64,000 nucleotides of DNA, taken from assembly GCA_028716665.1 (NCBI GenBank), contig JAQUPP010000002.1, positions 267,717 to 331,716 of the forward strand. Direction: 5' to 3'. Numbering within the stretch: position 1 is the stretch's first letter; each line of letters starts with the position of its first letter. The position numbers and the translations under genes are program-made. The notes below the pieces were generated by a model. That model searched no databases, was not told where the DNA came from, and saw nothing but the letters and a program-made list of their open reading frames with translations. Below, piece after piece: positions 3,644-60,675 of this stretch. This DNA is from Patescibacteria group bacterium (GTDB taxonomy: Bacteria; Patescibacteriota; Patescibacteriia; UBA2591; JAQUPP01).

Positions 3644-4528
3644 ATGGTTGAAGGCAATAGACAATTTGAACAAACAAGAAATCCCAAACACAAATCGGTT
3701 GGTTTGATATTAAGGCAAATATACGAAGACATCAGGACTTTAAAAGTGAAAACAAGTGAGCAGGATTTTGATAAAAAATATGATGAATTACGCGAAAAAT
3801 GCATTAATGAAAATCCCGGAGCCGAGTCTATGATTGCGGCATTTTTAGGCATTAAAGACATGGCGGAAGGTGAAAAAAAATTAGTTGAATTGCCCAGAGA
3901 TGCCCGATGGACGCCGGAACAAAAAAAGAATTTTCAAAAATCTATGCGCGAATTGACCGAATGGCAATTTACCATAACTCATTGCGTTCTTCATGCAGGA
4001 GAAAATAAGGAACTTCTTGGTTCATTTTGGTCAGAGTGTGACAGATTAAATCGTTTATTTTCCGATAATTCATTTTTTATTTATAAAAAAGGGGTTATCG
4101 GCCAAGTCGGAGTTTATAAAATGATGGAACATTTTGGATTAAATCCGGAAATGCCTCCTCCATGGGAAGACGCTTTTGAAAAAACCGATTTAAAGGTTCA
4201 TTTCCCAGGCGATAATCCAAATCCGGTTCAGACTAAATATATTCGCGGCACGGAAAAACCCATTTTTATTTCAACTGATGAAATTTCTCACCCGAATATC
4301 GTCCATTATGGAAAAGAAAAAAATATTCATATTTCCAATAAAGATATTGAAGAAATGATCCATTTAAAAGAAAAATGCGACGCTAGAGCTCAGCGCGAAC
4401 ATAAAGAAGTGGTTGGTTTTTATTTGGCTTGTCCTGATCACAGTTTTGATGATTTAACCGGCAAACCAACTGAAGAATTTTTAGCTCAAATTGAACCTGA
4501 AATTAAAAAGCATTTTCCGGAAAAATAA
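3644..4528 (+). CDS. hypothetical protein
   Basis: 294-aa ORF, no recognised motif. Confidence 0.4.
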   Translation: MVEGNRQFEQTRNPKHKSVGLILRQIYEDIRTLKVKTSEQDFDKKYDELREKCINENPGAESMIAAFLGIKDMAEGEKKLVELPRDARWTPEQKKNFQKSMRELTEWQFTITHCVLHAGENKELLGSFWSECDRLNRLFSDNSFFIYKKGVIGQVGVYKMMEHFGLNPEMPPPWEDAFEKTDLKVHFPGDNPNPVQTKYIRGTEKPIFISTDEISHPNIVHYGKEKNIHISNKDIEEMIHLKEKCDARAQREHKEVVGFYLACPDHSFDDLTGKPTEEFLAQIEPEIKKHFPEK

Positions 4529-39098: not shown

Positions 39099-39446
39099 AT
39101 GGAAGATGTTATTTTGATTACAAAACCTATTTCTAAACAAGAACTTAAAGAAATTGCCGTCAAAAGATTCGGCGATCTGGTAAAAGCAGTAGTTGATCTT
39201 GAAAAAGGAACAATGGCATTAGGAGCCGATTTGCACTCTGACGAAGAAGCATTTTTATTGAATAACGGTTCTGACCAGCAAAATTTGTGGGGTATCAATC
39301 TTTATCCGGATCTTGAAATGCCGGAAATGGTTGAATTTGATTCTGTTATTAATATTCGTCCAAAACAGAATAATCGCTCGCGTTCAGTTGAAAATGAAGA
39401 AATTAGAGAAAAAATTTTGGCAGTTGTTAAAAATTTTATTATTTAA
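39099..39446 (+). CDS. hypothetical protein
   Basis: 115-aa ORF. Confidence 0.35.
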   Translation: MEDVILITKPISKQELKEIAVKRFGDLVKAVVDLEKGTMALGADLHSDEEAFLLNNGSDQQNLWGINLYPDLEMPEMVEFDSVINIRPKQNNRSRSVENEEIREKILAVVKNFII

Positions 39447-39448
39447 AT

Positions 39449-39784
39449 ATGGATTTTATTCATTCTAATTTGGCAAATGGCCGTTGGTCTGTAATGACGT
39501 TAGCCGAGCAAATGGCCAATGTTGGCAGTGAATTTGAAAGGGCATTGCAATGGAAGAAAAAAAATAATTCGCAATTTTTTGACAATGCCGCGGCAAGAAT
39601 GCTGGATTTAATGGATTTAACCATCAGCGACAAACGTTGGCACAACCATCGCCTTAAAGAATTAACGAGAATAAGAGAGGTGGTTTGCGAAGAATTATTT
39701 AATGAATCACCGAATCAAAAATCAATTGAAGGTTTGGAAAAGTATTTTTTAAGTTTCGGCTATCTGGCCAGATTAAATAAATAA
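39449..39784 (+). CDS. hypothetical protein
   Basis: 111-aa ORF. Confidence 0.35.
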   Translation: MDFIHSNLANGRWSVMTLAEQMANVGSEFERALQWKKKNNSQFFDNAAARMLDLMDLTISDKRWHNHRLKELTRIREVVCEELFNESPNQKSIEGLEKYFLSFGYLARLNK

Positions 39785-39788
39785 GAAT

Positions 39789-40442
39789 ATGAAATTTTTA
39801 CTTACTTCGTCAGGTCTTACAAACAAATCAATTGCCAAAGCTTTATTGGAATTGGTCGGTAAAAAAGCCAAAGAAACAACCATTGCTTTTATTCCAACCG
39901 CGGCCAATCCCATTCAAGACGACAAAACTTGGTTGATTAACGATCTGTACAATATCAAGAAACAAAATTTTAAAAGCATTGATATTGTTGATATTTCCGC
40001 TTTGCCGAAAAAAAATTGGCTGCCGCGGCTTGAAGACGCCGATGTTCTGTTTTTTTCCGGAGGAAATGTTTTTCATTTGATGTATTGGATGAAAAAATCA
40101 GGTTTGGCGAAAATCTTGCCCAAGCTTTTAAAAACCAGAGTTTACGTCGGAATCAGCGCCGGCAGCATGGTTACCACCAAAGACCTCTCATTCAGCTCTG
40201 CTAAACGCCTTTATTATGAAGATTTGAAAGGAAAGCCCGACGAAAAAGGACTCGGGTTTTTTGATTTTTATTTCCGTCCGCATCTCAATTCTCCGCATTT
40301 TCCAAAAGTCCGCAAGAAATTTTTGGAACAAACGAAAAAAGGATTAAAAGATCCCATCTACGCCCTTGATGACCAATCCGCCCTCAAAATTAAAAACAAA
40401 AAAATTGAAATCATCACCGAAGGCAAATATCTAAAAATATAG
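39789..40442 (+). CDS. peptidase S51 family (dipeptidase E-like)
   Basis: FFSGGNVFHL and VGISAGSM serine-nucleophile region. Confidence 0.6.
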   Translation: MKFLLTSSGLTNKSIAKALLELVGKKAKETTIAFIPTAANPIQDDKTWLINDLYNIKKQNFKSIDIVDISALPKKNWLPRLEDADVLFFSGGNVFHLMYWMKKSGLAKILPKLLKTRVYVGISAGSMVTTKDLSFSSAKRLYYEDLKGKPDEKGLGFFDFYFRPHLNSPHFPKVRKKFLEQTKKGLKDPIYALDDQSALKIKNKKIEIITEGKYLKI

Positions 40443-40450
40443 TTTCTAAT

Positions 40451-41425
40451 ATGAGTAAAAAAGAAATAAACAAGAATTTAGTTATTTATCAGGCGAAATC
40501 CGGCGCAATTGAGCTTCGGGGTGATTTTACGCGCGAAACCATATGGGCTACGCAGGCACAGATAGCTGATGTTTTTCAGGCTGAGCGATCAGTTGTGACT
40601 AAACATATTCAAAATATTATTAAAGATAAAGAATTGGATGCTAATTCAGTATGTGCAAATTTTGCACATACTGCGAATGACGGAAAAGTATATAAAGTGC
40701 AGTTTTACAACCTTGATGTAATTTTGGCTGTGGGATACAGAACTAATTCAAAACGAGCTATTGAGTTTCGCCAATGGGCGACCAAAACGCTGCGAAGCTA
40801 TATCATTGATGGTTTTGCCGTGAATAAAAATCGTATTGCGAAAAATTACCAGCAGTTTTTAAATGTAGTTGATGATATTAAAAAATTCCTACCTGCCGGA
40901 CCGGCGATGGAAGCAAGGGATGCAGTTGAGCTTGTTTCGCTTTTTGCCGATACTTGGTTGTCGCTTGATGCATATGATAGAGATTCTTTGCCAAAAGGGA
41001 AACTAACAAAAAAGAAAGTTGAATTAACGGCAGATAAAATCATTGACAGCCTTACTGAATTAAAAACAGAGCTTATTCGCAAGTCAGAAGCGACTGATAT
41101 TTTCGGTATGGAAAGAAGCAGGGGATCTGTGGCGGGAATTGTCGGCAATGTAATGCAATCTTTCGGAGGCAAGGAATTATATGAAAGTGCGGAAGAAAAA
41201 GCGGCGCATTTGTTGTATTTTATGGTTAAAAATCATCCCTTTACTGATGGAAATAAAAGAAGCGGAGCATTTGCTTTTGTCTGGTTTTTAAAACAAGCCA
41301 ATATTTTAAATGTATCAAAACTTACTCCTTCCGCTCTTACGGCACTTACGATTCTTGTCGCAAGTAGCGATCCGAAAGACAAAGATAAAATTGTGGCTTT
41401 AATTTTAAATTTAATTGCTAAATAA
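40451..41425 (+). CDS. Fic/Doc-family protein with N-terminal RhuM-like domain
   Basis: HPFTDGNKRSG Fic motif; RhuM-like YNLDVILAVGYRTNSKRAIEFRQWAT. Confidence 0.7.
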   Translation: MSKKEINKNLVIYQAKSGAIELRGDFTRETIWATQAQIADVFQAERSVVTKHIQNIIKDKELDANSVCANFAHTANDGKVYKVQFYNLDVILAVGYRTNSKRAIEFRQWATKTLRSYIIDGFAVNKNRIAKNYQQFLNVVDDIKKFLPAGPAMEARDAVELVSLFADTWLSLDAYDRDSLPKGKLTKKKVELTADKIIDSLTELKTELIRKSEATDIFGMERSRGSVAGIVGNVMQSFGGKELYESAEEKAAHLLYFMVKNHPFTDGNKRSGAFAFVWFLKQANILNVSKLTPSALTALTILVASSDPKDKDKIVALILNLIAK

Positions 41426-41430
41426 ATTCG

Positions 41431-42021
41431 ATGAGTAAAATAAAAGTTTTAATTCAAGGTTACGCCAAAGAAAAAAACGGACAAGAATTCGCTTCGTCAA
41501 CAACCACGCTGATTCAAGAGAAAGGATTAAACATAATCGTTGACCCGGGAATGAACCGAAAATTATTATTAACGTCTTTGAAAAAACAAGGTTTGACTGT
41601 TTTGGATATAAATTATGTGATTTTAACGCATGATCACTCAGACCATTGTCTTTTGGCCGGAATTTTTGAAAAAGCCAAAATTTTGGACGCGGATGATATT
41701 TATTCATGGGACGGAAAAATCACCGGTCATAACGGTAAAGTCCCCGGAACTGAAATTAAAATTATAAAAACGCCCGGCCACGCCATGTTTCATTGTTCAG
41801 TTTTAGTCCAGACAAAGGAACTCGGAAAAACGGCCATTGTCGGCGATGTTTTCTGGTGGGCAGACGAAGAAAAACAAAAAACAGACCAACAAAGCCTGTT
41901 AAAACACAAAGACCCTTACGTAAAAAATGAAAAATTGCTCCTGGCAAGCAGAAAAAAGATTCTGAAAACCGCGGATTATATCATCCCCGGCCATGGAAAA
42001 ATGTTCGAAACAGGGGATTAA
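41431..42021 (+). CDS. MBL-fold metallo-hydrolase
   Basis: LTHDHSDH metal-binding motif. Confidence 0.7.
   Translation: MSKIKVLIQGYAKEKNGQEFASSTTTLIQEKGLNIIVDPGMNRKLLLTSLKKQGLTVLDINYVILTHDHSDHCLLAGIFEKAKILDADDIYSWDGKITGHNGKVPGTEIKIIKTPGHAMFHCSVLVQTKELGKTAIVGDVFWWADEEKQKTDQQSLLKHKDPYVKNEKLLLASRKKILKTADYIIPGHGKMFETGD
41946..42021 (+). repeat. direct repeat copy 1 (3' end of MBL hydrolase gene)
   Basis: about 90% identical to 43610-43690. Confidence 0.8.
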
Positions 42022-42162: not shown

Positions 42163-42525
42163 ATGAATATGAAAACAACTTTGCCCATTTCTGAGGCAAG
42201 AAAACAAATTTTTTTAATCGCAGAAGAGGCCCAAAGGCCCGGCAATTATTATACTTTAACCGAAAAAGGAAGGCCAAAAGTGGTGATGATGTCTGCCGAA
42301 GAGTTTGAATCTTGGCAGGAAACTTTGGAAGTGATGCAAGAATTTCCCAATTTGAAGAAAGACATCGCGCGCGCCGAAGCGGAAATAAAAAAAGGTGATT
42401 ATATCACCTTAGAAGAAATGATGGCCAAAAGCGGTTATATTTTAGCGGATAAATCAAAACAAAAATATGGCATATCAAATAATCATCGCCAAGAGTGTGC
42501 AAAAAGAAATAGAAAAGTTAAATAA
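42163..42525 (+). CDS. Phd/YefM-family antitoxin
   Basis: TLPISEARKQIFLIAEEAQ...VVMMSAEEFESWQETLE pattern; 3' end overlaps the toxin gene by 59 nt. Confidence 0.6.
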   Translation: MNMKTTLPISEARKQIFLIAEEAQRPGNYYTLTEKGRPKVVMMSAEEFESWQETLEVMQEFPNLKKDIARAEAEIKKGDYITLEEMMAKSGYILADKSKQKYGISNNHRQECAKRNRKVK

Positions 42526-42718
42526 TGTTTTTCAGATAAAAATTCAACTTGCGTTAGCTCAATTGGCAATCAATCCTTTCATTGGGAAAAAATTAGAAGG
42601 CGAATATAAAGATTCGTGGTCATATCGCGTTTGGCCGTATCGCATTTTGTATAAAATTCGCAAGCGCGAATTGGAAGTCTGGATAGTCAAAGTCGGACAT
42701 CGACAAGGAGTTTATTAA
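42467..42718 (+). CDS. RelE/ParE-family toxin
   Basis: 83 aa, YRILYKI ... VKVGHRQGVY C-terminus. Confidence 0.6.
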   Translation: MAYQIIIAKSVQKEIEKLNNVFQIKIQLALAQLAINPFIGKKLEGEYKDSWSYRVWPYRILYKIRKRELEVWIVKVGHRQGVY

Positions 42719-42736
42719 TAAAATTAATATAAAAAT

Positions 42737-43552
42737 ATGACAGATGATATAATTATTAATTCCCTTAATAAAGATTTTGAGAGTATTAAAAAAATTACTA
42801 AAAATGGTATTGAGTATTGGCAAGCTCGCGAATTAATGCCTCTTTTAGATTATCCAAATTGGCAAAAAGCAGAAGAAGTGATAGCTAGGGCTGCTAGGGC
42901 CTGTATTAATAGCGGCCAAGCTGTGGATAACCATTTTCACCAAATGGTTAAAATGGTGGAGATTGGCTCAAGTACAATGCGAGAAATAAGAGACTGGAAA
43001 TTAGATCGATATGCTTGTTATTTGGTTGCGCAAAACGGCGATCCTAATAAGCAAGAGATTGCTTTGGCTCAGACTTATTTTGCCATTCAAACAAGAAAAC
43101 AAGAAATATTTGAACAACTTTCTGCTTCCGATAAACGACTTTTTATTCGTGGCGAAGTAACGGCGGAAAATAAAAAGCTTTTCAGCACTGCTAAAAGAGC
43201 CGGTGTAACAAAATTCGGTTCATTTAATGATGCTGGCTATAAAGGATTGTATGGAATGCCTCTTGCGGATATTGAAAATAGAAAAGGAATAAGGAAAGGA
43301 GAACTTTTGGATCGTGCAGGAACAACTGAGCTGGCAGCAAATTTATTTCGAATAACTCAGACTGATGAAAAAATCAGAAAAGATGATATCAGGGGGGATG
43401 ACCTTGCGTCAAGAACGCATTTTATGGTCGGTGGTAAAGTCCGACAGACAATCAAGGATATAGGCGGAACACTTCCGGAAAATCTTCCGCCGGAAAAACA
43501 TATTAAGGAATTAAAAAGTGAGAAAAGAAAAAGTTTAAAAAAAAGAAACTAA
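42737..43552 (+). CDS. DNA-damage-inducible protein D (DinD)-like protein
   Basis: WQARELMPLLDY, DRYACYLVAQNGDP, ALAQTYFAIQTR pattern; C-terminus resembles that of ORF 49384. Confidence 0.45.
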   Translation: MTDDIIINSLNKDFESIKKITKNGIEYWQARELMPLLDYPNWQKAEEVIARAARACINSGQAVDNHFHQMVKMVEIGSSTMREIRDWKLDRYACYLVAQNGDPNKQEIALAQTYFAIQTRKQEIFEQLSASDKRLFIRGEVTAENKKLFSTAKRAGVTKFGSFNDAGYKGLYGMPLADIENRKGIRKGELLDRAGTTELAANLFRITQTDEKIRKDDIRGDDLASRTHFMVGGKVRQTIKDIGGTLPENLPPEKHIKELKSEKRKSLKKRN

Positions 43553-43609: not shown

Positions 43610-43690
43610 AACGAAGCAGAAAAAAGATTTTAAAAATCGCGGATTATATCATCCCCGGCCACGGAAAAATGTTCAAAACAGGGGGAATAG
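43610..43690 (+). repeat. direct repeat copy 2 (degenerate duplicate of MBL gene 3' end)
   Basis: AAGCAGAAAAAAGATT ... GCGGATTATATCATCCCCGGCCA(T/C)GGAAAAATGTTC(G/A)AAACAGGGG. Confidence 0.8.
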
Positions 43691-43724: not shown

Positions 43725-45611
43725 ATGCGTTTTATTGGTTGTAAAGAAAATTTACTTGGTTTTATAGAAACCTTTGTCAAAAAAAAAGACATAAGAGGTA
43801 ATACCTTTTGTGATCTTTTTGCTGGAACAGGAAGTGTCGCTAAACATTTCAAAAAGCTTGGCTATAAAATTATTTCATCCGACCTTTTATATTTTTCTTA
43901 TGTTTTGCAAAAAGTTTATATTGAACAAAATCAATATCCTAAATTCGCTAAATTATTAAAATATTTAAAAATAAATCCCGTAGAGGAAACTCTTTTTACT
44001 AGTGACAGTCAAAACGCAAAAGAAGTAATCAAATGTCTTAATAATTTAGAAGGAACTGAGGGTTTTATTTATAAAAATTACTCACCTGAAGGCACACGGG
44101 GTCAAACAAATCTTCGTAAATATTTTACTGGCAATAATGCCAAACAAATTGACACGATAAGAGAAAAAATTGAGGAATGGAAAAAATCAAATTTCCTTAA
44201 TGAGCAAGAGTATTTTTTCTTACTTGGCGCACTTATTGAAGCAGTGCCATTTGTCGCAAATATCAGTGGGACTTATTCTGCTTTTCTTAAAAAATGGGAC
44301 AAGCGAGCATTTAAAAAACTAACACTTGAAGTGCCAGAAATTATTAAGAGCAATGAAACACATAAAGTGTTTAATATTAATGGTTTAAATGTTTTTGATC
44401 AGATAAAAGGAATTGATATTTTATATCTTGATCCGCCCTACAATGAGAGACAATACGCACCGAACTATCATATTTTAGAAACTATCGCAAAATGGGATAA
44501 ACCAGAAATTAAAGGTATTACTGGAATGAGAGCTTATGAAAATCAAAAATCTGAATTTTGTAATTCAAAATCTGGTATTAAAGCTCTTGATGAAATTATT
44601 AAAAAAAGCGACTTTAAACATTTAATTTTGAGTTATAATGATGACGGTATTATGCCAGAAAATGAAATATTAAAACTATTTAATAATGCTGGAAAAATTG
44701 AGGTAACAGAACAGGATTATCAAAGGTATAAAAGCAATAATAATGGCGATCAAAAAAATGGAGTAAGGGAAAAACTTTATTATCTTAAAAGAGTAAACCA
44801 TAATAATAAACTTAATGATTTAAGCGGCTCAGAGTGGATTTACTTTTTAAATTCGGTTGATGTAACTCACTATTCAACAAAAGGAATAGACGGCTTTGCC
44901 CATCATTTACGTGGAAAACATCCCTCGCCTAAACCACCTCAATTGATGAAAAAATTTATTGATTTTTTTACAAAAGAAAATCAAATCGTCCTCGATCCAT
45001 TTATGGGCGTTGGCGGAACATTAATTGCTTGCTCATTATCTAATCGAAAAGGAATTGGTATAGATTTATCAAAAAAATATATTGATTTATATAAAAAGGT
45101 TTGTAAAGAACTTAACGTTGTTGAGCAAACAACGATTGTTGGTAATTCCACAGGAATAGATAAATTATTAAAAAAAGGTACGACTATTGATTTTATTCTA
45201 ACTGATCCGCCATACGGTGAAATGTTAAGTAAAAAACGAACAGGACAAAGAAAAAAGAAAACAGGTATAGCCGTAGCCACGCCATTTACTAATCACGAAA
45301 CTGATTTGGGAAATATGGAACGAGAAAATTTTCTTGAATCATTAAAAGAGATAATTGCAAAATCAGCGGAATATCTAAAACCAAAAGGATATATTGCTGT
45401 TTTTGTAAAAGATTTACAACCTAAAAATGGCGAGCATAATATGCTTCATGCTTTTATAACAGATAAATTATTAGAAATTCCAGATATATCTTTTCGGGGT
45501 TATAAAATTTGGTATGACGCAACGCAGAAACTTTATCCTTTTGGCTATCCGCACGCTTTCGTTGCCAACCAATTTCATCAATTTATTATGATATTTCGTA
45601 AAGAAAAGTAG
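43725..45611 (+). CDS. DNA methyltransferase with two amino-MTase modules
   Basis: motif I FAGTGSV then DPPY (YLDPPYNE); second module KPPQL...VLDPFMGVGGT then TDPPYGE. Confidence 0.7.
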   Translation: MRFIGCKENLLGFIETFVKKKDIRGNTFCDLFAGTGSVAKHFKKLGYKIISSDLLYFSYVLQKVYIEQNQYPKFAKLLKYLKINPVEETLFTSDSQNAKEVIKCLNNLEGTEGFIYKNYSPEGTRGQTNLRKYFTGNNAKQIDTIREKIEEWKKSNFLNEQEYFFLLGALIEAVPFVANISGTYSAFLKKWDKRAFKKLTLEVPEIIKSNETHKVFNINGLNVFDQIKGIDILYLDPPYNERQYAPNYHILETIAKWDKPEIKGITGMRAYENQKSEFCNSKSGIKALDEIIKKSDFKHLILSYNDDGIMPENEILKLFNNAGKIEVTEQDYQRYKSNNNGDQKNGVREKLYYLKRVNHNNKLNDLSGSEWIYFLNSVDVTHYSTKGIDGFAHHLRGKHPSPKPPQLMKKFIDFFTKENQIVLDPFMGVGGTLIACSLSNRKGIGIDLSKKYIDLYKKVCKELNVVEQTTIVGNSTGIDKLLKKGTTIDFILTDPPYGEMLSKKRTGQRKKKTGIAVATPFTNHETDLGNMERENFLESLKEIIAKSAEYLKPKGYIAVFVKDLQPKNGEHNMLHAFITDKLLEIPDISFRGYKIWYDATQKLYPFGYPHAFVANQFHQFIMIFRKEK

Positions 45612-45612
45612 T

Positions 45613-47004
45613 ATGAAAAATAAAAATTTGTGGATTTTAACAGAAGAAAGACCAAAGCGAGAAGTTATCGCTAATATTTTAATGATGTTTGCAAAAAATA
45701 ATGAATTTGTCTGCTTTGTTGACACTATCCGCATTTTACCAATTTTAGAGAATGGTAAATTTTCATTTTTATATGAAGTGGTTGGTTTTCGTTGCAATAA
45801 AATTGAGAGAGTTTTTATAAAATCTGTTAGCGGTTTTGGTAGTTTTGTTGATTTTTTAATTTTTTTTCAAGAAAAACAGCCGATACAAACAGATTTACCA
45901 ATATATGCGATAGAAGAAACAAAAACTGATGATAAAGAAAGCAGAAACACAGGCGTATATCAGCGTGCTTCAAAATTTGTATTTATCGAAAAATACTATC
46001 CTAAAATAAAGAAAGTAATGCTTTATAATTTACAGATAGAACAAAAAGAGATACCAACAGCTACTTATATTTTCGGCACACGATTATTATTAACTCTTGG
46101 AGTTGAAATACTCGGTAAAAAACTAGATAGTAAAATTTTTCAGCCATTTCATTCACTTGATGAAATTATTGCTCTTAAAAAAGCAATGAGAAAAGCCCAT
46201 AAAGGCAATGTCCCGATTTTAATTAAAAAAATTGGCAATAAAATTACAGTTTCTGGTAGATTATATAAATCAGATGGGCTTGCTCATGATCCAAATATCG
46301 GGGCATTAAGTTTGATTTGCGCCGTTATTAGGGAATTAGGTTGGGATGGTGAAATTATTATTACTAAACACGGCTTAAAACAAAAACATATTCAAACTGA
46401 TAATAAATTTATAAAAATTGCTAACAAGTTGAATATAAAAATTCATGGACTTTTAATCCCTGTCAGTAAACATAGAGATAATTATTGGAAATATGAAACA
46501 GAGGGCGAAAAACTTGGCACAATTTTTATTCATTTAGTAGTTGAGAATTTTACAGAAGGATATGCAATTTTTGAAAATCATGCTGGATGTGAAAAAGGTT
46601 ATTTTATAACGAGCGATGGCAAACATATTCCACTTGAAAAATACTCAGATAGAAAAGCATACAAAGCCGGAAATAAAAATAAAATAATTAGCATCCCTGA
46701 TTTAATTTTGATTGATTTTGGAAGAAGTGAGATTGTCAATATTGAGGGTAAAAAATATCAATTTCGCCAAGACGGAATTAAAGAATTAAAAGGTTTTGGT
46801 GATATAGAAAAAACTTATATCAAAAAATATTATCCGAAATTTAAAATTACTCGTACTGTCGTTTTATATGGCGGAACTAAAACAAAAATTATTGAAATTG
46901 AAGTAGGTTTTTTACTCAATGAAAACGGCGATCTTATACTAGGAATGAAAGCACCAAAATTATTTAAAGAAGCAATTAAAAACCTTTTAGATTTTTGGTT
47001 GTAA
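45613..47004 (+). CDS. putative restriction endonuclease partner of the methyltransferase
   Basis: 1-nt spacing after MTase gene; PD-(D/E)xK-like segments (AIEETK; IPDLILIDFGRSEIVNIEGKK). Confidence 0.4.
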   Translation: MKNKNLWILTEERPKREVIANILMMFAKNNEFVCFVDTIRILPILENGKFSFLYEVVGFRCNKIERVFIKSVSGFGSFVDFLIFFQEKQPIQTDLPIYAIEETKTDDKESRNTGVYQRASKFVFIEKYYPKIKKVMLYNLQIEQKEIPTATYIFGTRLLLTLGVEILGKKLDSKIFQPFHSLDEIIALKKAMRKAHKGNVPILIKKIGNKITVSGRLYKSDGLAHDPNIGALSLICAVIRELGWDGEIIITKHGLKQKHIQTDNKFIKIANKLNIKIHGLLIPVSKHRDNYWKYETEGEKLGTIFIHLVVENFTEGYAIFENHAGCEKGYFITSDGKHIPLEKYSDRKAYKAGNKNKIISIPDLILIDFGRSEIVNIEGKKYQFRQDGIKELKGFGDIEKTYIKKYYPKFKITRTVVLYGGTKTKIIEIEVGFLLNENGDLILGMKAPKLFKEAIKNLLDFWL

Positions 47005-47041: not shown

Positions 47042-47455
47042 ATGGAGAAGAAAATAACAGAAGATTTTGTTAAACATGCAATAATTAAGTGGCTATCATC
47101 AAATGGTTGGGGATATTTTCAATTTGGAAATTTACATGATCATGGTGTTGATCTTAAGGCTAAAAATTTTAAATACTCTCGATATTTTTTTATTGAAACA
47201 AAAGGGCAAGGAAAAATAAGACAGGCAGATGAGGTCGCTTTTATCTATTCACTCGGGCAGATTATTACAAGAATGAAATCTGGCGGATCAACACGAAATT
47301 ATTATGCATTAGGATTACCTGATGTAAGTGCAAAAATTGCTATTCGGCGTATTCCGTGGCAAGTAGCTAAAAAACTTTTACTTTATGTATTTTCTGTAGA
47401 TAAATCTGGAAAAGTAAAACAATACTCTTGGCAAAATCTTAAAAAAATTCAATAG
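47042..47455 (+). CDS. small PD-(D/E)xK-fold nuclease-like protein (Hjc/Mrr-like core)
   Basis: 137 aa with HGVDLKAK...FFIETKGQ (D ... ExK) arrangement. Confidence 0.4.
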   Translation: MEKKITEDFVKHAIIKWLSSNGWGYFQFGNLHDHGVDLKAKNFKYSRYFFIETKGQGKIRQADEVAFIYSLGQIITRMKSGGSTRNYYALGLPDVSAKIAIRRIPWQVAKKLLLYVFSVDKSGKVKQYSWQNLKKIQ

Positions 47456-47529
47456 GCAGTGCACTAATTTTACTGACAAAAAATTAGGCGAAAAAAAATA
47501 ATATATTATAAAATAATTTTAAAAATTTT

Positions 47530-47718
47530 ATGAGTAAAATTCAAACTAATTCAGGACAAATTAGAAAAAAAAGAGAGGATACTTTAATTAAAAATATTGA
47601 AAAACAATATGGTGTTAATTTTGGCGTGCGAGGCGACGAAAAACTTGGAACATATCTTAGAGACAAAGGACTTCCTTCTCTTTCTAAGGCTCTAGTCAAA
47701 GTGACAAAAAAGAGATAA
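47530..47718 (+). CDS. small basic hypothetical protein (first gene of five-gene operon)
   Basis: CTGACA ... TAATAT promoter-like sequence at 47475-47515; 62 aa. Confidence 0.35.
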   Translation: MSKIQTNSGQIRKKREDTLIKNIEKQYGVNFGVRGDEKLGTYLRDKGLPSLSKALVKVTKKR

Positions 47719-47722
47719 CCAT

Positions 47723-48238
47723 ATGAATATTGATACTTTTTATAAAAATGTTAAATGGAATCTTGAACAAATCGTGGTTCAGGTTGGACATGCAGAAGGA
47801 GTAAAGGGAAGAGCTAGAAGCGGATATTATAAGTCGGCAATTATTTTAGCCGCTTCAATAATAGAAGCACTTGCATATAAAATATTAGAGCAAAATTATT
47901 CTCTAGAAATGCCGTTAGAAGATTGGAAGTGTGTACGTTCAAATTTTTTGCCCGAACAATATAAAAGCGATAAAGGAGAAAGGTTAAGTATTTGTGAGAG
48001 AAAAAGATTTAAGTTTGAGCTAAATAAACAAACTGATTTCAAAAAGGTAAACGAGGTTTGTCATTTCCTTAATGTTTTCTCAACAAAATCATTCAAAAAA
48101 ATAGAAAAGGTAAGAAAATTAAGGAATAGAATACATATTCAAGGATTAGATGATTTGGATAGAAGTTATACAAAAAAAGAATTGGAATTTGTTTCATCTG
48201 TCATGAATGAATTACTAAACAAGATTAATCATGGATAA
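47723..48238 (+). CDS. hypothetical protein, possible HEPN-like domain
   Basis: C-terminal RKLRNRIHIQG fits Rx4-6H; 4-nt gap to the upstream gene. Confidence 0.35.
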   Translation: MNIDTFYKNVKWNLEQIVVQVGHAEGVKGRARSGYYKSAIILAASIIEALAYKILEQNYSLEMPLEDWKCVRSNFLPEQYKSDKGERLSICERKRFKFELNKQTDFKKVNEVCHFLNVFSTKSFKKIEKVRKLRNRIHIQGLDDLDRSYTKKELEFVSSVMNELLNKINHG

Positions 48239-48249
48239 TTTATTAAACT

Positions 48250-48615
48250 ATGATTAACAATATCGAAAAATTAACTGAGTCCCAACTTGTTGAATATACG
48301 GGCGAAAAAGCTAAACTTTCAGGAATGTCGAGCGGACTTGATGCCCAACAAGCTCAGGCTGAACTTACCAAACGTCTAATTGACAGTATTCGAAATTTTG
48401 ATGATGCCTCTTCTAGATATTCCAAAATTTTATTAATACTCACAATGATTTTAATGGAAATTGGTATTTCTCAAATACTTATAACTTTATTTCAATTTGA
48501 ACGGTTATGGGAAAAAATGTTAATATACTTTATTATTCTTTTGGGTTTTATTATATTATTTATATATGCTTATAAATCAATTTTTAATGACGACAAAAAA
48601 TTAAATAATAAATAA
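48250..48615 (+). CDS. small protein with soluble N-terminus and two C-terminal TM helices
   Basis: hydrophobic segments ILLILTMILMEIGISQILITLF and LIYFIILLGFIILFIYAY. Confidence 0.4.
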   Translation: MINNIEKLTESQLVEYTGEKAKLSGMSSGLDAQQAQAELTKRLIDSIRNFDDASSRYSKILLILTMILMEIGISQILITLFQFERLWEKMLIYFIILLGFIILFIYAYKSIFNDDKKLNNK

Positions 48616-48616
48616 T

Positions 48617-49372
48617 ATGTCTGAATATTATAACCCAAACAGAACAAGAAATCTTTACAGTCCTATTTCAAAGGAAGTTTTTCGTTTAAGTCGGTCAAAG
48701 ATTGATTTATTCATAAAATGTCCGAGGTGTTTTTATTTGGATCGCCGGCTTGGCGTCGGCCAACCGCCCGGATTTCCGTTTTCCTTGAATTCCGCCGTGG
48801 ATAAACTTTTGAAAAAAGAATTTGATATTCATCGGGCTAAAGGAGTGGCGCATCCGTTAATGACCGAATATGGCGTGGACGCGGTGCCGTTGGTTCATAA
48901 AAAAATGGAAGAATGGCGTGATTCTTTGCGCGCCGGCATAACTTATCAAATACCCGGCACGAATATAATGATTACCGGCGGCGTGGATGATGTTTGGGTA
49001 AATCCGAAAGGCGAATTTCTGATTGTTGATTACAAAGCCACTTCAAAAAGTGAGGAAGTTAATTTGGATGCCGAATGGCAGATTGGGTATAAACGGCAGA
49101 TGGAAATATATCAATGGTTGTTCAGGCAAAATGGTTTTAAAGTGTCTTCAACCGGTTATTTTGTTTATTGCAACGGCGACGCGGACAAAAAAGCGTTTGA
49201 CGGCAAATTGGAATTTGACATCAAAATTATTCCGTATAAAGGCGATGATTCTTGGGTTGAAAAAACCGTTAAAGAGGCGATAGAGTGCCTTAATTCCGAC
49301 ATTCTCCCTAAACCCGGACCCGACTGCGACTTTTGTAAATACCGCCAAGCGGTCAAAAAATTTGAGAACTAA
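48617..49372 (+). CDS. Cas4/RecB-like PD-(D/E)xK nuclease with four-Cys cluster
   Basis: GGVDDVW ... LIVDYKAT (D/ExK), QMEIYQW (QxxxY), Cys at CPRC (N-terminal) and CDFC (C-terminal). Confidence 0.55.
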   Translation: MSEYYNPNRTRNLYSPISKEVFRLSRSKIDLFIKCPRCFYLDRRLGVGQPPGFPFSLNSAVDKLLKKEFDIHRAKGVAHPLMTEYGVDAVPLVHKKMEEWRDSLRAGITYQIPGTNIMITGGVDDVWVNPKGEFLIVDYKATSKSEEVNLDAEWQIGYKRQMEIYQWLFRQNGFKVSSTGYFVYCNGDADKKAFDGKLEFDIKIIPYKGDDSWVEKTVKEAIECLNSDILPKPGPDCDFCKYRQAVKKFEN

Positions 49373-49383
49373 AATAATAATTT

Positions 49384-50232
49384 ATGATAAATAATAAACA
49401 AATCACGATTTTTGAAGGTCAAAAAATCCGCCGGCTATGGGACGAAAAAAAAGAAAAATGGTATTTTTCAGTTATTGATATTATGGCCGTTCTTACAGAG
49501 CAACCCGATTTTAAAAAAGCGCAAAGCTATTGGACAACGCTTAAAAATCGTTTAAAACAAGAAGGGAATGAGTCTGTCACAAAATGTGACAAACTGAAAT
49601 TACAATCTACTGATGGAAAGTATTATAAAACCGACACAGCCGACGTAGAAACAATTTTGCGCCTTATTCAATCAGTTCCGAGTAAAAAAGCTGAACCGAT
49701 AAAATTATGGCTGGCGCGCGTGGGTTATGAAAGAATACAAGAAACCGTTGATCCGGAAAAATCAATCAATCGGGGCAGAATGAATTGGCAAAGAATGGGC
49801 CGAAGCCAAAAATGGATACAGCAAAGAATGATGGGGCAGGAAATCAGAAATAAATTGACGGATTATTGGAAAAATAACGAAGTCAAAGAGCAGGACGAAT
49901 ACGCTATTTTGACAAATATTATTCATCAAGAATGGATCGATTTGTCGGTTAAGGATCATAAGAATTTAAAAAAATTGAAAACAGAAAATTTGCGCGATCA
50001 TATGACGGATGCGGAATTGGTTTTTTCGGCCTTGGCGGAACTTTCCACACGTGAAATCGCCGAAACAATGAAAACAAAAGGCTTGGAAGAAAATAAAATT
50101 CCGGCGGTTAAGGGAGGCCGCATTGCCAAAAATGCGCGATTGGAATTGGAACAGAAAACCGGCAAAAGTGTTGTCAGCAGAGAAAATTTTTTACAATCTC
50201 CAAAAAATGGAAAAAAATTAATTAAAAAATAA
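49384..50232 (+). CDS. Bro-N-domain protein with DinD-like C-terminal region
   Basis: N-terminal ITIFEGQKIRRLWDEKKEKWYFSVIDIMAVL; C-terminal resembles 42737 ORF C-terminus. Confidence 0.45.
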   Translation: MINNKQITIFEGQKIRRLWDEKKEKWYFSVIDIMAVLTEQPDFKKAQSYWTTLKNRLKQEGNESVTKCDKLKLQSTDGKYYKTDTADVETILRLIQSVPSKKAEPIKLWLARVGYERIQETVDPEKSINRGRMNWQRMGRSQKWIQQRMMGQEIRNKLTDYWKNNEVKEQDEYAILTNIIHQEWIDLSVKDHKNLKKLKTENLRDHMTDAELVFSALAELSTREIAETMKTKGLEENKIPAVKGGRIAKNARLELEQKTGKSVVSRENFLQSPKNGKKLIKK

Positions 50233-50807: not shown

Positions 50808-51299
50808 ATGAATAAAAAAAATGTTATCAAGTTTTTAATTTATTTCGGTTTTTGTGAATGCGCCGGCGCCATTGGCAGTATTTTCACCGTTTCGGCCATC
50901 AAAAATTGGTATGTATTTTTAGAAAAACCGTCTTTCAGTCCGCCAAATTGGTTATTCGGTCCGGCCTGGACCACACTTTATCTATTAATGGCAATTTCCA
51001 TTTTTCTCATTTCGTCCTCTTACGCTAAAGCTACAGAAGGACAGAGCAAAAAAATAAAAATGGTTTCTCGTCTTTTCTGGATTCATTTATTTTTTAACGC
51101 CATTTGGTCATTTTTATTTTTCGGATTGGAGAGCCCATTACTCGGACTTTTTGACATTATAATTTTATGGGTGATGATCGGAATTTTGACTTTTCAATTC
51201 TTCAAAATCAGAAAACTGGCCGGAATTTTATTTATTCCTTATTGGCTTTGGGTTTCTTTTGCCACAATTTTAAACTTTTTTGTTTGGAAATTAAATTAA
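50808..51299 (+). CDS. TspO/MBR family tryptophan-rich membrane protein
   Basis: NWLFGPAWTTLYLLMAIS, five TM helices, Trp-rich. Confidence 0.7.
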   Translation: MNKKNVIKFLIYFGFCECAGAIGSIFTVSAIKNWYVFLEKPSFSPPNWLFGPAWTTLYLLMAISIFLISSSYAKATEGQSKKIKMVSRLFWIHLFFNAIWSFLFFGLESPLLGLFDIIILWVMIGILTFQFFKIRKLAGILFIPYWLWVSFATILNFFVWKLN

Positions 51300-51484
51300 C
51301 CCTTCGACAAACTCAGGATAAATCCTTCGACAAACTCAGGATAAATCCTTCGACAAACTCAGGATAAACCCTTCGACAAACTCAGGATAAACCCTTCGAT
51401 ACTTCAACAGATTCAGTACAAGTAAACTCAGGATAAATCCTTCGATACTTCAACAGATTCAGTACAAGTAAACTCAGGATAAAT
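51299..51484 (+). repeat. tandem direct repeats: 23-bp unit x4 followed by a 46-bp unit x2
   Basis: CCTTCGACAAACTCAGGATAAAT x4, then CCTTCGATACTTCAACAGATTCAGTACAAGTAAACTCAGGATAAAT x2. Confidence 0.85.
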
Positions 51485-51498
51485 CATTTAATAAATTT

Positions 51499-52547: not shown

Positions 52548-52898
52548 ATGAAAAAGAAAAAATATTCATCGTTTTATCGGGAATTTAAGGAAATGCATGC
52601 AATGCGAAAAAAGATTGATGCGAAATGTAAGCAAATAAATAAATTAATGGCAGAAAAAGGCAAGTTAGAGAAAGAAAAGGTTAAAAAACTTAAGAAATTT
52701 GTAGGAAAACGAGTTGAAATATGTTGGGACGACGATTCGCAATGGAAAGGTAAAATAGAGTGTACTTTAGTTAAAATTTTTGAAGATCGTAATTTTGGCT
52801 GGGGATGTAAAATAGAACAGAAATCCATAAAATATATTCGTGGTCCCGAAACAAAAATATTATTTGTGAACGAAATTACGAAGATAGAAAAAGTTTAA
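52548..52898 (+). CDS. hypothetical protein, paralog of 60325..60675
   Basis: shared KRVEICW..D..WKGKI.CTL core; TTGACG-N17-TATTAT promoter and AAGGAGG SD. Confidence 0.5.
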   Translation: MKKKKYSSFYREFKEMHAMRKKIDAKCKQINKLMAEKGKLEKEKVKKLKKFVGKRVEICWDDDSQWKGKIECTLVKIFEDRNFGWGCKIEQKSIKYIRGPETKILFVNEITKIEKV

Positions 52899-60037: not shown

Positions 60038-60328
60038 ATGAGCAAAAAAAATAATATCGATAAGTTCGTTAAAGAAGTCGGGAATACGATAAAAATACTG
60101 ATGACTCGGTGCGAAAAAGCAGGAATGAAGAAAAAGACTATTCAAAAATTTTTTGCCGGGGAAGAAGTTATAAACTGCCCTCATTGCAAGACCATGAATA
60201 TGGTTGAATCGCATTATGACAAAAAAGAAGAATGGTCAATGTATAAATGTTTGGCCTGCAAAAAAACACTTCTTAAAGATTGGAAAAAAATCTCGCCTAT
60301 TATTGTCAAGAAAGGAGGTGAAAAATGA
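60038..60328 (+). CDS. zinc-ribbon protein
   Basis: CPHC ... CLAC; overlaps next gene by 4 nt. Confidence 0.45.
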   Translation: MSKKNNIDKFVKEVGNTIKILMTRCEKAGMKKKTIQKFFAGEEVINCPHCKTMNMVESHYDKKEEWSMYKCLACKKTLLKDWKKISPIIVKKGGEK

Positions 60329-60675
60329 AAGCAGAAAAATGTTCATCGTTTTATCGGGAAAATCAAAAATTAATTGATTTACAGGATAAAATCAATGAGC
60401 AATCTAAAAAAGTGAATGAATTACAGGCGAAAAAAAGCGAGTTGCTGAAAAAAAAGGCTGAAAAATTCAGGGAATTCGCGGGAAAACGGGTTGAAATATG
60501 CTGGAATGAAGGTGACTGGAAAGGTAAAATCAGGTGTACTTTAAGTGAAGTCGTAGAACCTCATGAATTCAGCTTGATATGCAAGATGAATTCTAATAAA
60601 ACCGTACAGTTCCTACGCGGTCCTTACAGACAGATGTTCTTTATAGAAAATATTACAAGGATAAAGGAAGTTTAA
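60325..60675 (+). CDS. hypothetical protein, paralog of 52548..52898
   Basis: KRVEICWNEGDWKGKIRCTL core; identical downstream terminator. Confidence 0.5.
   Translation: MKAEKCSSFYRENQKLIDLQDKINEQSKKVNELQAKKSELLKKKAEKFREFAGKRVEICWNEGDWKGKIRCTLSEVVEPHEFSLICKMNSNKTVQFLRGPYRQMFFIENITRIKEV

Follow-up and report, generated by a model that had tools for sequence, protein, structure and literature searches.

A candidate two-gene HEPN cassette of the toxin-antitoxin type in a restriction-modification island of a Patescibacteria genome

The stretch of DNA analysed here (the window) comprises 64,000 nucleotides (nt) from a Patescibacteria group bacterium (contig JAQUPP010000002.1, positions 267,717 to 331,716). 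Genomes of the Patescibacteria (candidate phyla radiation, CPR) are tiny, and apart from restriction-modification (R-M) few defence systems have been recognised in them. Positions 47456-50232 of the window hold five open reading frames (ORFs) on the plus strand, separated by 4, 11, 1 and 11 nt and referred to below as p62, HEPN171, TM121, nuc251 and Bro282 (Table 1). All five products have homologues elsewhere, and the five are therefore real genes. The initial annotation had located these frames and gaps correctly and had read them as one defence-type operon behind a single promoter, composed of a small protein, a HEPN-like protein, a two-transmembrane (2-TM) effector, a Cas4-like nuclease and a Bro-N protein. 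Nothing was found that shows the five genes to be one co-inherited unit and, when their co-conservation was checked across 60 related loci, only p62 and HEPN171 travelled together. On balance we favour, with modest confidence, the reading that the conserved functional unit is a two-gene cassette of the toxin-antitoxin type, p62 plus HEPN171, which is one cargo item of an R-M island.

Table 1. Positions of the genes and features discussed (window coordinates unless a contig is named).
Feature	Position	Strand	Description
p62 gene	47530..47718	+	62 amino acids (aa), basic; putative antitoxin or regulator
HEPN171 gene	47723..48238	+	171 aa, HEPN-fold, putative RNase toxin
TM121 gene	48250..48615	+	121 aa, 2-TM protein; outside the cassette, backbone gene
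nuc251 gene	48617..49372	+	251 aa, PD-(D/E)XK (RecB/Cas4-like) nuclease, CxxC...CxxC; outside the cassette, backbone gene
Bro282 gene	49384..50232	+	282 aa, Bro-N / PDC-S13-type; outside the cassette, variable cargo of the second slot
Promoter-like CTGACA-18 nt-AATAAT	47473..47502	+	in the 74-nt gap 5' of p62; 10/12 matches, weak evidence
Type II R-M system	43725..47004	+	fused D12 + N4/N6 methyltransferase (43725-45611), restriction endonuclease (REase; 45613-47004); typical kind of neighbour of the pair
p137 gene	47042..47455	+	small basic protein between REase and p62; variable cargo
Disrupted HEPN171-family genes	L006/L037:2169-2684, L044:4505-5009, L049:5806-5976, L057:1417-1919		upstream p62 intact

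The loci compared, 9 genomic and 51 metagenomic, each encode a relative of HEPN171 and were searched by tblastn with all window proteins and by profile hidden Markov models. HEPN171 itself has 71 homologues, nearly all of them from Patescibacteria/CPR metagenome bins. In 53 of the 60 loci the HEPN gene is immediately preceded by a p62 gene. Among the seven loci without it, two are contig edges, one is a fragment and three carry very distant relatives of 228-236 aa; an intact, closely related HEPN gene is present in none of the seven. Between the p62 stop codon and the HEPN start there is a median of 4 nt, as measured in 39 non-redundant loci, where the values range from -4 to +20 apart from one frameshifted outlier. 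In the reverse test, a HEPN171-family gene follows three of four divergent p62 homologues, the fourth being the copy on contig L074. TM121 and nuc251 gave zero matches in the 60 pair-bearing loci, and a DinD/Bro-N gene follows the pair once (L019). The genes that flank the pair differ from locus to locus and, in about half of the loci, are housekeeping genes only; thus, the cassette is self-contained. A type II toxin-antitoxin system is generically recognised as two small genes that are tightly coupled, inherited together and mobile as one unit, and p62/HEPN171 displays all of these features. Moreover, in four independent loci the HEPN gene is frameshifted, split or truncated next to an intact p62 (Table 1), while a disrupted p62 beside an intact HEPN gene was never seen in the 60 loci, a one-sided pattern which, although the numbers are small, fits a toxin/antitoxin relation.

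The separate histories of the other three genes are apparent from a close relative of the window's organism, represented by the sister contigs L064-L066 and reached via a TM121 homologue with 85% identity. The left flank of the sister island corresponds to that of the window, with Peptidase_S51 (93% aa identity), RhuM-Fic (85%) and Lactamase_B (87%), as does the right flank, with dCMP deaminase (89%), TspO (80%) and ATP synthase. The first slot of the sister genome contains an SDH protease, three unknowns and DpnI; that of the window contains PhdYefM/ParE, DinD, a methyltransferase (MTase), an REase, p137, p62 and HEPN171. After this slot come TM121 (85% in each of the three contigs, following DpnI and not a HEPN gene) and then nuc251 (95%), and the place of Bro282, the sole occupant of the second slot in the window, is taken by NUDIX, methyltransferase and helix-turn-helix genes. 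The sister genome therefore keeps TM121 and nuc251 without the p62/HEPN171 pair and without Bro282 and, because of this synteny, TM121 and nuc251 are assigned to the backbone, and the pair and Bro282 to the cargo of separate slots. The variable island lies between Lactamase_B on one side and TM121 plus the nuclease on the other, and the five-gene "operon" consists of three units, each with its own history, that lie side by side. The GC content steps from ~29% to ~40% at position 48617; an island boundary at this step, after TM121, was rejected because the sister synteny makes TM121 backbone, and the low GC of TM121 is more simply explained by membrane-protein composition.

A defence system of five genes (p62, HEPN, 2-TM, Cas4-like nuclease, Bro-N), combining a sensor, a nuclease and a membrane effector, would account for the narrow gaps and for the finding that no terminator-like site lies between the five genes, and its component kinds are known from defence systems. 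Spacing of this kind is, however, found throughout the genome. Same-strand neighbours no more than 12 nt apart make up 34% in the window, where the coding density is ~0.90, and another five genes on one strand (39099-42021; 115 aa, 111 aa, Peptidase_S51, RhuM-Fic and Lactamase_B) are packed just as closely with plainly unrelated functions, so that tight spacing appears as the default habit of this genome. A promoter-like sequence does precede p62, as the initial annotation had proposed, but it is one among 43 such sites in 7.2 kb of AT-rich sequence, where shuffles give an expectation of 32 +/- 5.6, and for this reason it carries little weight. The five genes matched none of the multigene models of PADLOC, and relatives of nuc251 and TM121 occur in other contexts. 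Together with the absence of TM121 and nuc251 from the pair-bearing loci, the single DinD/Bro-N occurrence and the sister genome, these neighbourhood data largely refute the five-gene system, which we consider very improbable; what stands of the proposed defence operon is the HEPN protein and the defence-island context. As a matter of method, the sister-genome comparison, which split the "operon" into cargo, backbone and cargo, serves as a warning that a common strand and spacing of 1-11 nt do not make genes of a streamlined genome an operon-level functional unit. No Rfam model matched over the region, which gives no support for a type III toxin-antitoxin RNA partner or a riboswitch 5' of p62, and no tandem repeats were found in 47456-47529; on these two null results both were rejected.

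The predicted structure of HEPN171 (predicted local distance difference test score, pLDDT, 91.1; predicted template modelling score, pTM, 0.82) is a helical bundle with helices at residues 3-25, 29-57, 106-115, 121-140 and 151-170 and a modelled beta-hairpin insert at residues 65-97 (strands 65-75 and 89-97). The up-and-down four-helix bundle expected of a HEPN protein is thus present in the model. A Foldseek search with this model gave toxins as the closest structural matches, with probabilities of 0.8-0.99 and no E value reaching 0.001. The motif RKLRNRIH, noticed previously as a candidate Rx4-6H motif, is found at residues 131-138 of the protein, in the fourth long helix, as R131-K-L-R134-N135-R-I-H138-I-Q140, i.e., as R131-x6-H138, and the distance from the RN dyad to the His is one residue shorter than in the usual RNxxxH. 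R131, R134, N135, H138 and Q140 are invariant in 22 sequences of the family, down to 36% identity, as are E48 and S33, G34, Y36 and K37 of a near-invariant SGYYK patch. Because R131, R134, N135 and H138 are spaced i, i+3, i+4 and i+7, they should share one helical face. None of the 22 members matched a Pfam HEPN model at E <= 1 (HEPN, DUF86, AbiU2, AbiV, AbiJ, ApeA, Swt1, MAE_28990, DUF4145, etc.), and HEPN171 had no match in NCBIfam or PHROGs. The only link to HEPN at the sequence level is to the HEPN part of the PADLOC Csx1/Csm6 model (profile 230-339; E value 2.2e-5). By sequence, the family is uncatalogued, and it is essentially confined to Patescibacteria; HEPN171 is predicted to be a toxic RNase. 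Two further relationships were considered and rejected: a sequence-level link of the family to chains of known structure, its profile giving 0 matches at E <= 10 to PDB sequences, and a phage origin of HEPN171, no relative having been found in IMG/VR viral contigs.

The partner protein, p62, has an isoelectric point (pI) of 10.3, with 16 Lys or Arg among its 62 residues, and a conserved core ..RKKREDTLIKNIEKKY.V.FGVR.D.KLGTYL..KGLPSLSKAL. It is modelled as three short helices with a modest pLDDT of 78. No nucleotidyltransferase domain was found in it, and no DNA-binding fold could be assigned.

Two variants of the arrangement were observed. In L050:168-659 and L052:921-1412, which are Antarctic-lake-type contigs, the p62 frame extends upstream into an ORF of 163 aa and the HEPN partner has only 149 aa, without the last helix, which may represent a fused or extended form of p62. 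On contig L074 (Logan SRR22387764_3568), the p62 homologue at 4001-4210 (P0120, 69 aa) has no HEPN171-family gene after it; the contig also holds genes for an LPD38 "large polyvalent protein", an N6_N4 methyltransferase and an endolysin-like Amidase_3, a phage- or mobile-element-like context. This copy may be an orphan antitoxin or a decoy.

In the proposed mechanism, HEPN171 would be a HEPN-fold RNase, most likely dimerising as other HEPN toxins do, with R131, R134, N135 and H138 forming the putative active face. The co-translated basic p62 would bind HEPN171 directly and hold it inactive, in the manner of a type II-like toxin-antitoxin system. The cassette would move as a self-contained unit and be kept preferentially beside or inside R-M operons, after the methyltransferase gene, where it could either stabilise the R-M island (addiction) or provide a second-line growth arrest when restriction fails. 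Such a logic has been put forward for the many R-M-linked HEPN clades (PMC3710099) and is exemplified by PrrC (PMC12707154); the concept of a second line comes from PrrC and RloC. What is shown is the pairing and tight coupling of the two genes, the modelled HEPN fold, the invariant residues of catalytic type, the association with R-M and the independence from TM121, nuc251 and Bro282, and we infer the RNase activity and toxicity of HEPN171 and its neutralisation by p62, as well as any anti-phage role.

The results from the neighbourhood analysis indicate that in candidate-phyla bacteria the cassette is usually located next to or inside R-M operons. Among 35 non-redundant genes adjoining the pair on its upstream side, there were 9 matches to N6_N4_Mtase, 4 to EcoRI_methylase and 3 to N6_Mtase, corresponding to at least 16 methyltransferases if each match is in a different protein, in addition to 3 Eco57I, 2 HSDR_N_2, 1 MmeI and 1 AIPR. 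The 26 downstream genes included 3 HsdS, 2 ResIII, 2 methyltransferases, 1 GmrSD, 1 Bro-N and 1 GIY-YIG. Typed by PADLOC models, the order is MTase_III-pair-REase_III in two loci (L003, L047) and MTase_I-pair-Specificity_I in another (L020); Specificity_I also follows the pair in L011 and L015, and MTase_I precedes it in L010 and L036. The p62 match starts 4-38 nt after the methyltransferase gene in many loci, and in the window the pair lies downstream of the type II MTase and REase genes.

This arrangement raises the alternative that HEPN171 is a guardian of R-M comparable to PrrC, in which the adjacent R-M complex, and not p62, would keep the RNase inactive until a phage inhibits R-M, with p62 acting as adaptor or sensor. 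Links to R-M systems are known for at least 16 clades of HEPN proteins, for which a PrrC-like action has been proposed (PMC3710099), and "RM guardian" systems have been described as well (PMC12707154). The positions of the pair between the M and S genes of type I systems, between Mod and Res of type III systems and directly after methyltransferase genes agree with such a role, as does the higher conservation of p62 relative to the HEPN protein. PrrC-EcoprrI offers a precedent, and the interpretation has been put forward generally for R-M-linked HEPN proteins (PMC3710099, PMC12707154). However, the R-M partners belong to types I, II, IIG and III, whose subunits are unrelated, so that it is difficult to envisage one specific protein-protein interface; roughly half of the loci lack any R-M gene next to the pair; and HEPN171 is devoid of the ABC-ATPase regulatory domain of PrrC. 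We therefore regard control by the R-M complex as rather unlikely. A similarly doubtful variant is that p62/HEPN171 constitutes a compact, CPR-specific guardian, i.e., a mobile cassette inserting after type I, II and III methyltransferase genes, in which the unusually conserved p62 would act as a sensor of restriction status or DNA status (e.g., of DNA that is broken or unmethylated, or of an anti-restriction factor) and release the HEPN RNase. If this were true, the orphan p62 in the phage-like context of L074 would be a viral decoy antitoxin.

It is also conceivable that the pair is a non-toxic regulatory module, with p62 as a nucleic-acid-binding controller and HEPN171 as a ligand- or RNA-binding regulator which together tune the neighbouring, often R-M, genes in the manner of C-proteins and without killing. 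We give this little credence. Throughout the family, the R/N/H residues characteristic of catalytic HEPN domains show no variation, the closest structural matches of HEPN171 are toxins, the pair is also found among housekeeping genes, and p62 offers no assignable DNA-binding fold.

Several points weigh against the preferred toxin-antitoxin reading. Neither the fold search nor the family search with p62 returned a match. In distant loci, p62 retains 63-65% identity and the HEPN protein 30-34%, which is unusual for an antitoxin; this conservation hints at a constrained interaction of p62 with something else, e.g., nucleic acid or a component of the R-M system. The motif is R-x6-H, or RN-x2-H, instead of the commonest R-x4-H, and lacks the tyrosine of HepT. 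The loci with a disrupted HEPN gene are few and may contain real pseudogenes or assembly errors, and the counts of R-M neighbours are family tallies and not a per-locus table set against a genomic background.

Among characterised systems, HepT-MntA (HEPN-MNT, type VII) is represented by SO_3166/SO_3165 of Shewanella (PDB: 5yep) and by the HEPN/MNT pair of Aphanizomenon (7ae2). In place of an adjacent MNT antitoxin, HEPN171 is accompanied by a basic protein of 62 aa and, as p62 has no nucleotidyltransferase domain, neutralisation by AMPylation is impossible. In place of the Rx4HxY motif, HEPN171 has RKLRNRIHIQ, ending in H138-I-Q140 without a Tyr; it differs further by the beta-hairpin insert and matches neither the Pfam HEPN nor the DUF86 model. 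PrrC-EcoprrI, the anticodon nuclease encoded in a type Ic R-M operon, and RloC resemble the pair in that the gene for a HEPN-type RNase lies inside or beside R-M operons, and the location of the pair between hsdM and hsdS in related loci corresponds to the embedding of PrrC. These proteins are, however, large, with an N-terminal ABC-ATPase preceding the C-terminal HEPN domain, and have no small partner gene, whereas HEPN171 is a single-domain protein of 171 aa with an obligate small partner, which accompanies several R-M types and occurs also without R-M. The clades of HEPN proteins with R-M links surveyed by Anantharaman et al. 2013 (at least 16: Abi2/AbiD/AbiF, AbiU2, AbiJ, ApeA, Ymh, DUF4145, pEK499_p136, etc.) share the theme of an R-M neighbourhood; the corresponding Pfam models match 0 of the 22 family members at E <= 1, and the survey, to the extent consulted, contains no description of a p62 partner. 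RnlA and LsoA, of RnlA-RnlB and LsoA-LsoB, are large, multidomain proteins whose antitoxin gene lies downstream and is unrelated to p62. Finally, with 171 aa, no CARF domain and a PADLOC match over the HEPN part only, HEPN171 does not belong to Csx1/Csm6. Since the pair falls outside HepT-MntA, PrrC/RloC, Csx1/Csm6 and the catalogued Pfam HEPN families, it is a new variant within a known kind of module. Judged by sequence comparison, it would be an uncatalogued, CPR-restricted HEPN family with a novel obligate partner of 62 aa, within the established theme of R-M-associated HEPN proteins. A widespread uncatalogued HEPN cassette beside or inside CPR R-M operons would add a second layer of immunity, and the pair would offer a minimal (62 + 171 aa) model for the control of a HEPN RNase without an MNT or ATPase regulator.

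With regard to the genes set apart from the cassette, an exhaustive search for TM121 relatives gave 82 distant, stand-alone proteins in unrelated contexts, without linkage to nucleotide-signalling or effector genes. Its score with SLATT_1 is 14.8 bits against a cut-off of 41, and an effector role of the 2-TM protein could not be demonstrated. SLATT matches at E <= 0.1 were obtained for 10 of 30 relatives (best 0.0038) amid generic membrane-protein matches, and the SLATT assignment was rejected as both sub-threshold and mixed with such matches. A functional TM121-nuclease pair was likewise rejected, the two genes being adjacent only in the close sister genome and not among the distant relatives of either.

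The nuc251 product belongs to the PD-(D/E)XK fold family (PF12705 PDDEXK_1; E value 6e-16, 59.5 bits against a cut-off of 22), with the D...(D/E)xK and QxxxY motifs; CPRC at 35, DYK at 138, QMEIY at 161 and CDFC at 237 were all located as first described. The Cas4 side of the RecB/Cas4 label did not hold, the scores being 38.5 bits against a cut-off of 65 for TIGR00372 and an E value of 0.051 for Pfam Cas_Cas4. The window contains no CRISPR-like array, and cas genes were not observed next to nuc251 relatives in four contexts (L061-L064); on these grounds a Cas4 assignment was rejected. At least 8000 clusters of relatives were scored, of which the best 120 have 77-84% identity and the same length of 251 aa. 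One relative directly follows a UvrD-type helicase gene (L062), another is near MTase/LexA/Fic genes (L061), and none of these varied contexts contains the p62/HEPN171 pair. The many relatives, the 95% identity in the sister genome and the UvrD-type helicase neighbour in one locus are counter-evidence to a part in a defence operon, and by its conservation nuc251 looks like a RecB-family nuclease of the housekeeping type.

Bro282 contains the Bro-N domain expected for the last protein (Pfam Bro-N; E value 4.6e-6) and is a full-length member of the PADLOC family PDC-S13 (PDLC04920; E value 8.9e-118, residues 1-278 against profile 1-275 of 286); it is also related to the phage protein family phrog_15286 (E value 1e-86). 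PDC-S13 is a stand-alone, single-gene candidate family and not a subunit of a multigene system, and we found no paper testing it. The p137 protein (pI 10.0) had no match in Pfam, PADLOC, NCBIfam or PHROGs and is not present in the sister genome; a weak relative (L015:2377-2544), with 41% identity across 55 residues, is encoded downstream of an HsdS gene, next to a further p62/HEPN pair.

The remaining island neighbours listed in the initial annotation, an upstream MTase with a type II REase, a PhdYefM/ParE pair, a RhuM-Fic protein and DinD, were all recovered. The methyltransferase matches Pfam MethyltransfD12 (E value 4.8e-39), N6_N4_Mtase (E value 2e-30) and PADLOC MTase_II (E value 2.8e-103), and the adjacent endonuclease matches PADLOC REase_II (E value 1.3e-64). 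The RhuM-Fic protein (40451-41425) matches PADLOC PDC-S23 (E value 1.4e-108) and, being 85% identical at the same position in the sister genome, is backbone and not cargo in spite of its "defence-candidate" family. A direct repeat of 71 nt (93% identical) is present at 41946-42016, the 3' end of the Lactamase_B-fold gene (41431-42021), and at 43614-43684, just before the MTase gene. Between them lie the PhdYefM/ParE and DinD genes (42163-43552), and the second copy is closer to the sister genome's version of the Lactamase_B gene end. The repeat resembles a scar left when a cassette inserted and brought along a copy of the target gene's 3' end. In the gap after the TspO gene (51298-51485) there are two adjoining, near-perfect tandem arrays, one with a 23-nt unit in 4.4 copies (97% matches) and one with a 46-nt unit in 2.3 copies (98%), which are not CRISPR-like in size. 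The window also encodes a paralogue (60325-60672; 43% identity) of a 116-aa protein (52548-52898), of which the sister genome carries three relatives in tandem (L064:10490-11570); these proteins form a small expanding gene family.

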